A stretch of 64,000 bases of DNA from Candidatus Yanofskybacteria bacterium (GCA_016181175.1 JACOZV010000001.1:182185-246184), one strand, 5' to 3'. Counted from the first letter of the stretch, positions 27,614 through 59,898 are shown. Numbers and translations are program-made. Notes: generated by a model from the letters alone, not told the origin.

Positions 27614-28822
27614 TTACAACAAATCGTTTATCCTTGCTACCATCTTGTCGAGTGAAAATTTGAATAAAACAGTTTGATGAGCTTGGATGCCAAGTTCTTT
27701 ACGCATAGCTTCATCGTCGGCGAGCTTCACGATTGCTTGGGCGAGCGCTTGTGGATTGCGTGGTGCGACAAGAAGCCCATTTTTTTCGTTTTCAATTATT
27801 TCCGGGTTTGCACCAACGGCAGTAGCTATTACTGGCAATTTGGCTGACATTGCTTCAAGCAGAGCCCACGGGAATCCTTCTTTGACGGAAGGCAGAATAA
27901 AAATATCAAAAGCGGTGAGATATCTGTAAGCATTGGGAATTCTGCCAGCTAGGAAAATATGATTTTCCAGTTTAAGATTCGAGATTTTAGATTTGATATT
28001 TTCACACTCCGGACCGTCGCCGATTATAACTAAAGTAACTGGTAACTGGTAACTAGTAACTAGTAATTTGAATGCCCCAATCAGATACTCTAGACCTTTG
28101 GTTTTGTAGAAGTTGGCTATCGTTCCGATTATTAAATTTTCCTGCAGAAAACTGGAGTGTTTTTGTGACGGTGGCAATAGTTCGTATAGACGTATTTTTG
28201 CTTCGTCTTTGTCTAAAAAATCAAGTTTGTACGGGTCTATGCCGTTATAAATTAAAACTACTTCTTTGCGAGGCCTAATGGCATATTTTCTGGCTTGTTC
28301 GTAGTCGTGCCCGTTGTTGACGATGATGTAGTCCTTCCATGGGGCACTGATTTTTTCCAACTGACGGTAGAACAGACGTTTCCACAAGGGCCACGGATCG
28401 TTAAATGTCCAGCCGCCGATGCGGTAAATAGTTTTGGGACGAGTAGTACGTAGTAAGAAGTGCGTAGTAAGGGAGCCTATAAATCCTGCCTTGGAACTGT
28501 TTAAAAAAAGTGTATCCGGCCCAAACTCATTTATTATTTTTTTAAGTTCAAATGCCGAAGCGATATCGTTTAGAATGTTGGGATTGCGCCGCAAGTGCTT
28601 CGAAACTATATAGCTAATGTTTTGTGGCAACAAATTTTTAATTTCTTTATTTCCTTCGCGGCCAGCAACGACAGCGCATTCAAACTTTCCCAGATCTAAA
28701 TTATTCAGCAATTGTGATAAAAACTTTTGCGCTCCGCCCAATTCAGACATTGTAATTACGAACAAAACCCTTCTTTTGGGGTTATTTTTTGCATGTTCTT
28801 TGGGGTTGATTTTATCGTCCAT
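27614..28822 (-). CDS. GT4 (group 1) glycosyltransferase
   Basis: 'EGFPWALLEAMSAKLPVIATAVGANPEIIENEKNGLLV' is the GT4 EX7E region. It contains the (GTTACYA)n tract at 28025..28057. Confidence 0.7.
   Translation of the reverse strand: MDDKINPKEHAKNNPKRRVLFVITMSELGGAQKFLSQLLNNLDLGKFECAVVAGREGNKEIKNLLPQNISYIVSKHLRRNPNILNDIASAFELKKIINEFGPDTLFLNSSKAGFIGSLTTHFLLRTTRPKTIYRIGGWTFNDPWPLWKRLFYRQLEKISAPWKDYIIVNNGHDYEQARKYAIRPRKEVVLIYNGIDPYKLDFLDKDEAKIRLYELLPPSQKHSSFLQENLIIGTIANFYKTKGLEYLIGAFKLLVTSYQLPVTLVIIGDGPECENIKSKISNLKLENHIFLAGRIPNAYRYLTAFDIFILPSVKEGFPWALLEAMSAKLPVIATAVGANPEIIENEKNGLLVAPRNPQALAQAIVKLADDEAMRKELGIQAHQTVLFKFSLDKMVARINDLL
28025..28057. repeat. heptanucleotide tract (GTAACTG)2(GTAACTA)2 inside a GT4 gene
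   Basis: gtaactggtaactggtaactagtaactagtaat, coding on the minus strand (..LLVTSYQLPVT..). Confidence 0.6.
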
Positions 28823-28845
28823 TTATGATAATATAATAAATTAAA

Positions 28846-29991
28846 ATGGAAAAAAATTCAAATAGGATTATTTTGTTTACCACCGCATTTCGTCCGTTCA
28901 TTGGCGGTTCAGAACTTGCCATAGAAGAGATTGCCAAACGTTTGCCGGACGTTAATTTTGACATAATCACTCCAAGATATACTCGTAAATTAAAGAAACT
29001 TGAAGACTTTGGCCATGTGCGTATTTTTAGGGTTGGCTGGGGAATGTTGGGCGATAAAATTTTCTTTCCAATTTCAGGATTTTTGACGGCCAGACGGATA
29101 TCGCACCTGAATAACTACGCTATTATCCATGCTTACCAGGCCTCATATGGCGGGGGAGCTGCTTATCTTTTCAAACTTTTTAATTCGGCGGCCAAATTCA
29201 TTCTTACTTTGCAGGAAGGCAAAGATCTTGATCACCAGGGATTTTGGATAAGGTTTTTACGCAAAATTGTTATAAAAAGGGCCGATGTTATTACGGTAAT
29301 CAGTAATTATCTTCAAGATTATGCCAGGAGATTTAACAAAAAGGCAAAAATCACTATTATTCCCAACGGAGTTGATATAAAGAACTTCAGTAAAGAATAT
29401 AGTTATGGTGAACTATCAGAATTAGCCGACCGGCTCGGCATTAAGCCCGGTGAAAAAGTTATAATCAGCGTATCGCGCCTTGTTCCCAAAAACGGCCTGG
29501 ATGTTTTGGTTCGAGCCTTTGGTTTTTTAAATCAGGAGCCAGAAACCAGAAATTACAAATTGGTTTTTGTCGGTGATGGCGAACAAAAAAATGAATTAAT
29601 CGGATTGGCAAAAGAATCAGGCGTTTTTCAAAATATAATCTTTGCTGGCCCCACAAGCCACGCCGAATTACCAAAATATCTTAAAATTTCCGATGTATTT
29701 GTGAGACCTTCTCGTTCAGAGGGACTGGGTAGCGCATTTTTGGAAGCGATGGCAACCGGTACGCCCGTAATCGGTACAAAAGTCGGGGGCATACCCGATT
29801 TCTTGAAAAACAAGGAAACGGGACTCTTTGCTGAAGCCGGCAACCCTAAAAATCTTGCCGAAAAAATTAATTTAATTTTATCCGACAAGGAATTAAGGGA
29901 TAAGATTATAAAAAATGCAAAAGAATTGATTGTTCAGAAGTATGATTGGGATAAAATAGCCGGCGAATTCAAGAAATTATATGAAGCTTAG
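28846..29991 (+). CDS. GT4 glycosyltransferase
   Basis: '[32 protein letters not shown]' is the GT4 C-terminal domain motif. Confidence 0.7.
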
Positions 29992-30688
29992 CGTTATTAT
30001 ACCTGTTTTTAATGAAGTCAAAACCTTGGGGGTGATTTTAGAATTGGTAGAAAGAGTGGTTATGGGGTTAGAAAAAGAAATCATAGTTGTTGATGACTGT
30101 TCAACTGATGGTACGAGAGAAATACTGCAGAAACTGGAAGGCAAAGTAAAGATTTTTTACCAGCCAAAAAATATGGGCAAAGGCGCGGCCGTAAAAAGGG
30201 GGTTTGCCGAAGCCACGGGCGATTTGACGGTTATTCAAGACGCTGACTTGGAATATAGTCCGCAAGAATATCCAGATTTGATAAAACCGATTATCAACGG
30301 AAAAGCGGATGTCGTGTATGGGTCCCGCTTTTTAAAAGCGGATGTGTCTAAAAAAAATAAAATTATTTATAAGCGCGGTTATTTTTTTAGCAAAGCGCTT
30401 AATTGGTTTTCCAATGCTTTGGCAGGTCTCCGTCTTACCGACATGTATACTTGCTATAAAGTATTTTCCAAAGATGCGGTTGAAAGAATTTGTCCGCGGC
30501 TAAAGTCAAATAGGTTTGGTATTGATCCCGAACTAACTGCTTGGGTGGCTAAATTTAATTTTAGGATAATTGAAGTGCCGATTTCTTATAGGGGTAGAAC
30601 ATACGAAGATGGTAAAAAGATAAATTGGAAAGATGGTTTAGCGGCAATTTGGCACATAACTATGTTTAATTTGTTTACCAAGAAATGA
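29981..30688 (+). CDS. GT2 polyprenyl-phosphate sugar synthase (DPM1/GtrB-like)
   Basis: '[10 protein letters not shown]', '[10 protein letters not shown]', 'KGAAVKRG', 'VIQDADLEY' are GT2-A motifs typical of Dpm1/ArnC/GtrB. Confidence 0.65.
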
Positions 30689-59089: not shown

Positions 59090-59852
59090 TCCCCACAACA
59101 TTAGAATAATTCCAAGGCTGGACATAAAGGGTTCTAACGTGGTTAAGGGTATTTATACCGAGGGTTTGCGTGTTGTCGGCAGCCCGCGTGATTTAGCCAG
59201 AAGATATTACCAAGAAGGCGCCGACGAGATTTTGTATCTGGACATAGTTGCTAGTCTTTATCAGAGAAATCTTGATTTCGGATTGCTTAAAAGCGTGGCT
59301 GATGAAATTTTTGTGCCGCTTATTGTCGGTGGTGGCATAAGATCACTGGGCGATATTGAAAATGCTTTAAGATCTGGTGCCGACAAGGTGGCCATCAACA
59401 CTTATGCCATAGCACATCCAGAATTTTTGCCGGAAGCTGTGCAGAGATTTGGTGCGCAGTGTATCGTACTGTCTGTTGAAGCGAAAAAAACTGCTAATGG
59501 TGGTTGGGAAGCTTATACCGACGGTGGCCGTGAAAGGACCGGCATTGATGCGGTTGAATGGATAAAGAAGGCGATAAAATTGGGTGTGGGGGAGATTGTA
59601 ATAACGTCCGTTGACAAAGATGGCACACGTAAGGGATTTGATGTTGAATTAATTTCAAAAGTTACAGCTTTTGCGCCGGTGCCCGTTATCGTTTGCGGCG
59701 GCGCGGGAAGTCTGGAATCGGTAAAAGAGGTATTGGATAAGTGTAAGCCTGATGTCATATCGGCAGCTTCAATTTTTCACTATCAAGATTTTACCATCGG
59801 AGATTTAAAGAAATTTTTAAGCCGCAGTGGTTTTAATGTTCGTAATCAGTAA
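59076..59852 (+). CDS. hisF: imidazole glycerol phosphate synthase cyclase-like subunit (HisF/WbuZ-type)
   Basis: 'RIIPRLDIKG', 'ADEILYLDI', 'GGGIRSLGDIE', 'GADKVAINT' are HisF motifs. The gene sits in a glycan cluster next to hisH and a WbuX-type gene. Confidence 0.7.
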   Translation: MQNSNPHNIRIIPRLDIKGSNVVKGIYTEGLRVVGSPRDLARRYYQEGADEILYLDIVASLYQRNLDFGLLKSVADEIFVPLIVGGGIRSLGDIENALRSGADKVAINTYAIAHPEFLPEAVQRFGAQCIVLSVEAKKTANGGWEAYTDGGRERTGIDAVEWIKKAIKLGVGEIVITSVDKDGTRKGFDVELISKVTAFAPVPVIVCGGAGSLESVKEVLDKCKPDVISAASIFHYQDFTIGDLKKFLSRSGFNVRNQ

Positions 59853-59863
59853 TCAGTAATTAA

Positions 59864-59898
59864 AGTTACTAGTTACCGATTACCAGTTACCAGTTACT
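59864..59898. repeat. (AGTTACY)n tract in the hisF-hisH intergenic spacer
   Basis: agttactagttaccgattaccagttaccagttact, preceded by (AATCAGT)2. About 30 nt near-identical to the tracts inside the GT4 genes. Confidence 0.55.

Follow-up and report, generated by a model that had tools for sequence, protein, structure and literature searches.

Heptanucleotide tracts at fixed loop positions of GT4 glycosyltransferase genes in Candidatus Yanofskybacteria: candidate contingency loci with interrupted members in one surface-glycan island

Simple sequence repeats (SSRs) that switch glycosyltransferase genes ON and OFF are a hallmark of host-adapted pathogens, and contingency tracts of this kind usually lie near the 5' end of the gene. 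The short tandemly repeated repetitive (STRR) sequences of cyanobacteria are largely intergenic and their function is unknown. Bacteria of the Candidate Phyla Radiation (CPR), or Patescibacteria, have small genomes, are mostly episymbiotic and possess few regulators. Heptanucleotide SSRs have been described in Haemophilus influenzae, where (TGAAAGA)n lies upstream of hmw1A and hmw2A, (AATTTTG)14 is intragenic in hmw1a, and (AACAACC)n is also found (PMC2651432). The cyanobacterial STRR heptanucleotides are fingerprinting targets (PMC5088731). Here we describe three near-identical (GTTACYA)4-5 tracts of ~33 nt (T1, T2 and T3) in a 64,000-nt stretch of a Candidatus Yanofskybacteria genome (GCA_016181175.1 JACOZV010000001.1:182185-246184; the window), together with the class of period-7 tracts to which they belong. 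T1 and T2 lie in frame inside two GT4 glycosyltransferase genes (GT4 #1 and GT4 #2) and T3 lies between a hisF-like and a hisH-like gene. The best overall explanation, to which we give slightly better than even chances, is that the tracts in CPR GT4 genes are contingency loci and that the window copies are interrupted members of the class.

The class was characterized by a genome scan with orthologue alignment, covering 46 Yanofskybacteria/Paceibacterota loci (10-kb flanks) and 28 non-CPR loci; the tract census drew on 47 related sources. The 756 kb of CPR loci contain 80 period-7 tracts and 59 of period 14, with 1 to 19 tracts for every other period. The 518 kb of non-CPR loci contain 5 period-7 tracts and 2 to 21 of each other period. 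The period-7 enrichment is patchy: the closest relatives (L004-L007) and some others show it strongly, and many lack it. The units vary widely (AATTTTC, GATTACC, AAGTTTC, CAATTTC, GAATTAC, AAATTCA, AGTTGAC and AAACCAG are among them), and the GTTACYA unit itself is confined to this organism, being absent from the related genomes compared. Tract length peaks at 31-34 nt, and 13 tracts hold at least four perfect units.

GT4 open reading frames (ORFs) contain 67 of the 89 tracts. Tract density per kb is 0.235 in GT4 ORFs and 0.016 in other ORFs, a difference of ~14-fold, and 0.319 in intergenic DNA. When the tracts were mapped on a hidden Markov model (HMM) built from the orthologue family, the 49 that fall in aligned GT4 sequence were restricted to four model positions: ~175 (3 tracts), ~199 (6), ~242 (15) and ~265 (25). 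Approximately 10 further tracts are found 130-180 nt into the stop-to-stop GT4 ORF. The AlphaFold (AF2) model of GT4 #2, in which strands and helices alternate (mean pLDDT 87.8), places the T2 residues 242-252 at the end of helix 233-245 and in the loop before strand 252-257; the remaining hot spots are also helix ends and loops. In Rossmann folds generally, the connections from helix to strand point away from the catalytic cleft, and those at the hot spots probably do so as well. Tracts within the same locus share a unit (at most one mismatch) in 22.7% of comparisons, vs 15.2% between loci. Because this is only a marginal difference, tract mobility is not general.

Length alleles were found among the members of 90%-identity protein clusters. 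In species A, represented by a metagenome-assembled genome (MAG) from Rifle (L007), an ENA contig (L078) shows no mismatches to the MAG in 5820 nt and a single 7-nt gap. The gap reduces (GAATTAC)3.9 to 2.9 units at hot spot 265, which brings an immediate TAA into frame and splits the gene into 270 and 121 aa. A further allele of this species (P0026) lacks 21 nt (three units) at the hot-spot-177 tract. In species B, contigs L079 and L081 have no substitutions between them over 4212 nt; a single 7-nt gap in (AAAATGG)n, at hot spot 177, splits the gene in L079 into 180 and 229 aa. Also in species B, the main difference of P0024 from the intact P0162 is a 7-aa deletion at the (AAAATGG)n tract, with one adjacent substitution. 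The two three-unit alleles, P0026 and P0024, keep the reading frame. The split genes of both species are orthologues of GT4 #2. Repeat-number polymorphism, with OFF alleles, therefore occurs at homologous tracts in relatives of the window genome. The absence of substitutions over kilobases beside tract indels implies a raised tract mutation rate, apparently far above the point-mutation rate. Judged from these alleles, the tract class appears to be hypermutable and to make ON/OFF alleles.

Not all candidate variants were retained. The split alleles P0132/P0133 and P0143/P0144 were rejected as OFF alleles because their breaks are not at tract hot spots, and what looked like a 766-nt deletion in L082 is a scaffold gap of 100 N. 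JGI metagenomes, scanned with a flank-gap-flank pattern, gave no matches to the (AAAATGG)n locus. The cluster members of ten GT4 genes with perfect or near-perfect tracts belong mostly to singleton clusters and yielded no new variants.

These observations suggest the following mechanism. T1-T3 would be the heptanucleotide SSR family of this genome and part of a class belonging to a Candidatus Yanofskybacteria/Paceibacterota sub-lineage, whose members would be found at a small number of fixed surface-loop sites in GT4 genes and in the short spacers that separate these genes. Slipped-strand mispairing would change tract length. With one or two units gained or lost, the frame would shift and the protein would be truncated just after the tract, before most of the C-terminal donor-binding domain (OFF), while a three-unit change would keep the frame (ON) with a shorter or longer loop. 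The tracts would thereby act as contingency loci for surface-glycan structure. T1 would be a near-identical copy that replaced a different tract in a paralogue, T2 would be older, and the intergenic T3 would form a hairpin with the adjacent reverse-complement repeat. Switching would be adaptive and reversible, and the window tracts may still slip.

The window tracts themselves had been proposed as possible phase-variation loci in a first-pass annotation made from the sequence alone. The three ~33-nt loci it listed were recovered both by Tandem Repeats Finder (TRF) and by a consensus scan; the first locus, given as 28025-28057, had been placed ~9 nt too far left (Table 1). With at most 3 mismatches, a 25-nt tract consensus matches the window only at T1, T2 and T3, in two registers each. 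It has no matches in 100 dinucleotide-preserving shuffles of the window, and none is expected by chance. T1 and T2 are indeed in frame, on opposite strands. Both start in codon phase 0, and their products are KLLVTSYQLPVT and KLLVTNYQLPVT. The two tracts are identical at 36 of 38 nt in a manual alignment and are inverted relative to each other, 6.6 kb apart. A repeat finder reports them as 23-25-nt arms with 88-91% complementarity, inside an 88-nt stretch at 75%.

The repeat unit of the window tracts is not a multiple of three and is present in 4.7-4.9 copies. All three tracts are interrupted, as the annotation had noted in suggesting that slippage may be slow. The longest perfect run is 18 nt (2.6 units), in T1 and in T3, and T2 has no identical adjacent units. 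The imperfection of T1 and T2 is partly imposed by the coding frame, because TTACTAG and TTACTAA hold stop codons and cannot be repeated three times in an ORF. Indeed, the C in the third unit of T1 stands exactly where an in-frame TAG would arise. A change of one or two units in T1 or T2 is predicted to end the protein at aa 247-268 of 402-405, and a change of three units to keep the frame. Both host genes are intact (ON). Because perfect units number at most 2.6, T1 and T2 can be only slow switches or locked-ON alleles; non-variable (interrupted) alleles are likewise known from Neisseria pgl genes (PMC11130364).

Several observations weigh against the contingency-locus explanation. Logan contigs from four sequencing runs (one for T1, two for T2, four for T3) are 100% identical to the window and show no length variation at any of the three tracts, although this is a weak comparison because they carry no nucleotide differences from the window, probably derive from the same population, and are consensus sequences that cannot show minority variants. 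Imperfection is also general, most tracts of the class holding just two perfect units. Both OFF alleles come from a single ENA assembly (ERZ27254767), and they are rare, at ~2 among ~50 contigs of deeply sampled relatives. The OFF alleles are minority states, because in each of four species 9-16 contigs encode the identical intact protein and no gene is split at any of the 49 HMM-aligned GT4 tracts of the 47 sources. In addition, when metagenomes were scanned for (GAATTAC) arrays of 2.9 units or more, at least 120 contigs (L089-L208) were returned, with 31-67% G+C and up to 15.9 units per array, and among the matches listed the repeat is almost never in GT4 genes. Many of the listed matches have other heptamer tracts, or their own reverse complement, beside them and form hairpins, and the phenomenon looks like the STRR sequences. 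This wide distribution weakens the case that the 7-nt period was selected for frameshifting, and the period may come from a general generating process instead. Heptamer tracts are not CPR-specific; the specific feature of the present set is their crowding at fixed GT4 loops. On balance the proposal of phase variation is supported in part. The support is for the tract class, with one-unit truncating alleles in two relatives, rather than for the window copies, which are identical in all Logan contigs and are best described as interrupted, slow or locked-ON alleles of a switchable class.

The peptide LLVTxYQLPVT could in principle be a functional GT4 motif whose nucleotide periodicity is incidental, and two orthologues do carry similar peptides (MLITNYQLPIA in P0022 and LLITDYRLPII in P0003). 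The first-pass annotation had taken conservation of the peptide in GT4 homologues as the sign of such plain protein conservation. Comparison with the orthologues found no such conservation: alignments of both GT4 #1 and GT4 #2 contradict a conserved motif, and among ~30 orthologues of GT4 #2 no other part of the protein varies as much in sequence and in length as this segment. Orthologues of GT4 #1 are unrelated in sequence there, with a shorter loop in the more distant ones. The similar peptides stem from related heptamer DNA units, and a copy of the tract exists in intergenic DNA. We regard plain protein conservation as scarcely credible.

Comparison at the DNA level bears on the history of the tracts. 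At the T2 site the relatives have (AATTTTC)4.3 (L004) and (GATTACC)3.7 (L006), both perfect, an imperfect AATAC-type tract (L007) and TAATTAC/CAGTTAC units (L088). The flanks of T1 in GT4 #1, GCATTCAAA and TAGTTATAATCGGCGA, are conserved at the nucleotide level in L006 and L004, where a 33-37-nt tract of ACCCTAW type stands between them instead of T1. In orthologues of GT4 #1 with no more than 53% identity, the loop is short and lacks a tract. (Two 47-aa cluster mates of GT4 #1, P0166 and P0167, were set aside as unrelated sequences.) T2-type units recur at the orthologous site in two other species (L006 and L088), and T2 is probably the older copy. T1 is unlike its own orthologues and is a near-match to T2; because T2-type units recur at the orthologous site, this suggests that T1 is a secondary copy of a T2-type sequence that replaced a different ancestral tract. 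T3 is probably a secondary copy as well. We infer that copying ran from T2 to T1 and T3. The alternative raised in the first-pass annotation, a mobile repeat, survives only in this limited sense. There are three copies in 64 kb, each just a ~33-nt tract, with no transposon features and no flanking sequence common to T1-T3 beyond coding similarity, so that they do not resemble miniature inverted-repeat transposable elements (MITEs) or other mobile repeats.

T3 was correctly described as intergenic and preceded by a heptamer repeat, (GTAATCA)2.7. The spacer that holds it is 50 nt long, with the hisF-like stop at 59852 and the hisH-like start at 59903. The preceding repeat forms the 5' arm and the first ~20 nt of T3 the 3' arm of a hairpin at 59842-59883, with a 17-bp stem and two one-base internal loops (-14.9 kcal/mol, z -4.9; 0 of 200 shuffles folded as well). 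A stronger hairpin is predicted in L006 (9914-9992; -37.9 kcal/mol, z -7.6), at the junction orthologous to window 33937-33960 and directly upstream of the GT4 #2 orthologue, where (TAGTAGC/TGGTAGC)n pairs with (AAACCAG)3(AAACTAG)3. In the window, an ATTGATC-type tract (24493) folds at 24480-24530 (-12.7 kcal/mol, z -4.7) in the spacer upstream of a 1009-aa ORF. No significant folding was predicted for T1, T2 or the junction tracts at 33937 and 31742 (z -0.9 to +1.6). For T3, a place as one arm in a hairpin between two cistrons would be the better interpretation.

Three further explanations must be considered. A cis-acting role, in which the tracts work as RNA or DNA hairpins, protein-binding sites, intercistronic stabilisers or terminators, would apply chiefly to intergenic copies like T3, whose stem stands directly between the hisF-like stop and the hisH-like start. 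The L006 junction pair and the window 24493 tract fold too, and inverted tract pairs are common among the metagenomic matches listed. Such a role fits poorly with the four window tracts that do not fold and with the absence of any Rfam match (none was found anywhere in the window). It also fits poorly with the free divergence of unit sequences between orthologous sites, which leaves no conserved binding motif. We consider a cis-acting role possible rather than probable. Alternatively, the tracts may be a neutral by-product of a lineage mutational process that makes and homogenises 7-nt duplications everywhere, the duplications persisting where they are tolerated (in intergenic DNA and the floppy distal loops of GT4 proteins) and the OFF alleles being deleterious mutations in transit. 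This would account for the (GAATTAC)n and other heptamers outside GT4 genes in many unrelated metagenomic organisms, for an intergenic tract density as high as that in GT4 genes, and for the degeneracy of most tracts, the rarity of OFF alleles and the lack of a tract-split gene in the 47 sources. However, other ORFs, which also have tolerant loops, contain ~14 times fewer tracts, and the 49 aligned GT4 tracts are packed into four windows of ~10 residues at an estimated ~5 times the intergenic density. Coding units of 7 nt number 80, against 19, 11 and 15 for the frame-neutral units of 6, 9 and 12 nt, the opposite of what purifying selection alone would predict. Tracts arose in several paralogues within one sub-lineage and are missing from more distant orthologues. 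The neutral explanation is in our estimate unlikely, and marginally more so than a cis-acting role. Appreciable weight is still due to the neutral model and, for the intergenic copies, to a structural role.

The same-position, in-frame tracts could also be recombination joints, at which crossover, gene conversion or inversion would swap the C-terminal donor domains. T1 and T2, near-identical, inverted and in the same codon phase, would be suited to this, and the precise replacement of another tract by T1 between conserved flanks implies sequence transfer between loci. Homologous recombination requires a minimum length close to the ~30 nt of the tracts, which counts in favour of this proposal. 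Against it, the Logan contigs keep the window arrangement with no rearrangement seen, Pfam scans of the large ORFs of the window found no recombinase domain, and unit sharing within loci is just slightly above that between loci. Recombination joints are on this evidence very improbable. Only a little less improbable is a composite, in which a Yanofskybacteria surface-glycan phasome of GT4-loop heptamers doubles as in-frame joints (the T1/T2 pair) and uses a dedicated mechanism shared with STRR-like hairpins. The contingency-locus explanation for the GT4 tract class is the one we prefer.

Other heptamer tracts of the window follow the pattern of the class (Table 1). At the lowest threshold 10 period-7 tracts were observed vs 0.5 expected, with a weak excess of other periods except 14; at higher thresholds essentially period 7 and its double 14 alone are left, plus one period-12 tract. 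The period-7 tracts are concentrated between 20 and 35 kb, in the GT4 block, and are missing from the nucleotide-sugar genes (35-59 kb), bar weak two-unit matches at 37828 and 51630. The (AAGTART) tract noted in the first-pass annotation at the 33942/33962 gene junction is real, with 3.4 copies. So is the repeat it placed near 28440..28475, a pair of CGTAGTAAG at 28449-28472 (TRF period 14, 1.9 copies), which is weak. Several GT4 genes carry tracts at more than one hot spot. Hot spot ~177 has polymorphic (AAAATGG)n and (AAAATTC)n tracts in related species, and hot spot ~265 has (GAATTAC)n with an OFF allele in a related species. Separately, five contigs (L003, L005, L020, L027 and L032) end in or beside heptamer tracts or GT4 hot spots. 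L003, a Logan contig, ends at window ~31915, in tract 31886-31918. Such ends may reflect repeated k-mers or population heterogeneity.

Table 1. Tracts and associated genes of the window (positions counted from its first nucleotide)
Feature	Coordinates	Strand	Description	Product or position
GT4 #1	27614..28822	-	402 aa, hosts T1; Pfam Glycos_transf_1	
GT4 #2	33962..35179	+	405 aa, hosts T2; Pfam Glycos_transf_1	
T1	28034..28066	-	Coding strand (TTACTAG)2(TTACCAG)2TTAC, in frame in GT4 27614..28822; TRF period 7, 4.7 copies, 92% matches	LLVTSYQLPVT, aa 253-263; hot spot ~242
T2	34685..34718	+	TTACTAG TTACTAA TTACCAG TTGCCAG TTAC, in frame in GT4 33962..35179; TRF period 7, 4.9 copies, 77% matches	LLVTNYQLPVT, aa 242-252; hot spot ~242
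T3	59864..59897	+	AGTTACT AGTTACC GATTACC AGTTACC AGTTAC; TRF period 7, 4.9 copies, 81% matches	Between hisF-like and hisH-like genes
(GTAATCA)2.7	59842..59860	+	Reverse complement of TGATTAC-type unit; contains hisF-like stop codon	Precedes T3
(AAGTART)3.4 junction tract	33937..33960	+	Crosses stop of GT4 32881..33942	Ends 1 nt before ATG 33962
(TAAATTC)2.9 junction tract	31742..31761	+	Crosses stop of GT4 30685..31758	Upstream of start 31764
(AAATTTA/AAATTGA)4.7 tract	31886..31918	+	In GT4 31764..32888	N-terminal hot spot (~aa 41-51)
Degenerate heptamer tract	32479..32520	+	In GT4 31764..32888	Hot spot ~265
Degenerate heptamer tract	27971..28002	-	In GT4 27614..28822	KSKISNLKLE; hot spot ~265
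Degenerate heptamer tract	34476..34510	+	In GT4 33962..35179	aa 172-183 EELRSKKHELRI; hot spot ~177
21-nt (three-heptamer) repeat x2.1	34752..34796	+	In GT4 33962..35179	SLKLQVK-SLKLQ; hot spot ~265
hisF-like cyclase subunit	59046..59852	+	Within glycan island	
hisH-like glutamine amidotransferase subunit	59903..60538	+		

The host genes are GT4 glycosyltransferases of the GT-B fold, both by their Pfam domain (Glycos_transf_1, PF00534; E 3e-40 for the T1 host and 1e-47 for the T2 host) and by a Rossmann-like beta/alpha architecture. Their PDB relatives include 2jjm and 3mbo (deposited as group 1 glycosyltransferases) and PimA. GT4 #1 and GT4 #2 are 28% identical. GT4 #2 is 100% identical to MBI2062819.1 of a Candidatus Yanofskybacteria MAG, on a 374-kb contig. 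This protein match, together with the location of 67 of 89 tracts in GT4 ORFs, ruled out that the tracts are the cyanobacterial STRR repeats themselves.

The window (40.7% G+C) is densely coding, mostly on one strand, and nearly the whole of it is one ~60-kb surface-glycan and nonulosonic-acid island, so that the tract-bearing GT4 genes can be assigned a surface or modification function. The island encodes seven GT4, two GT2 and two PMT_2-type glycosyltransferases, three TPR proteins, an ABC-2 transporter pair and the hisF/hisH-like pair. The sugar genes comprise two NeuB, three (CMP-sugar) cytidylyltransferases, a DegT aminotransferase and a radical-SAM/SPASM enzyme, and the gene set suggests a modified nonulosonic acid. 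Three very large ORFs (8734-12336, 24532-27561 and 4897-8097) are also present. The 1200-aa and 1009-aa ORFs have no Pfam match; the 1066-aa ORF combines a lamin-tail domain with a PQQ/beta-propeller and contains a 48-nt repeat (6346-6461). The convergent genes 24532..27561 (+) and 27614..28822 (-) have between them a perfect 34-nt palindrome (27576-27609; AAACTAAAATCCGCTTT / AAAGCGGATTTTAGTTT) that resembles a bidirectional terminator. The listed ORF 60433-61779 starts at a TTG inside the hisH-like gene and has no Pfam match. A Logan gene call gives 414 aa with a start at the end of hisH, and this later start is probably the true one.

It is plausible that the surface glycans of CPR bacteria determine host attachment and phage susceptibility. 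If the contingency-locus explanation is confirmed, uncultured groundwater CPR bacteria would diversify their surfaces stochastically, and the tracts would provide sequence markers for sub-populations in metagenomic time series. The fixed hot spots mark positions of GT-B loops that tolerate arbitrary inserts of 7-12 residues. We found no paper pairing "heptanucleotide repeat" with "Candidate Phyla Radiation". Patescibacteria are unmentioned in the top-ranked papers on phase variation, and no paper linking SSR switching to CPR bacteria was found.

Among the closest described systems are the SSR contingency loci of H. influenzae lipopolysaccharide (tetranucleotide), Neisseria pglA, pglE, pglG and pglH, and Campylobacter jejuni lipooligosaccharide and capsular polysaccharide (poly-G). 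Like the tracts described here, these place a repeat whose unit is not a multiple of three in a surface-glycan transferase gene, where slippage by one unit leads to frameshift and truncation, and in both cases interrupted alleles exist beside variable ones (PMC11130364; PMC2651432). The window tracts differ in having 7-nt units in 4-5 copies, compared with 13-38 copies in the hmw heptamers of H. influenzae (PMC2651432). The CPR tracts also lie mid-gene, at several fixed loops of the catalytic fold, with two or three tracts possible per gene; they are often degenerate, and their hosts are uncultured free-living or episymbiotic groundwater bacteria.

The other close systems are the heptamers of H. 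influenzae and the STRR. The former share the 7-nt unit, the combination of promoter or intergenic sites with intragenic ones, and a frameshift attributed to change in unit number (PMC2651432), but their genes encode adhesins and receptors rather than GT4 enzymes, and they lack a structural hot-spot pattern. The STRR of heterocystous cyanobacteria share a lineage-specific excess of tandem 7-nt repeats with several unit families per genome (PMC5088731), whereas most CPR tracts are in frame in GT4 coding sequence and ON/OFF length alleles were found. The mechanism proposed for the CPR tracts would match that of known SSR contingency loci, and the differences lie in the short arrays, the mid-gene structural hot spots, the frequent degeneracy and the host lineage.

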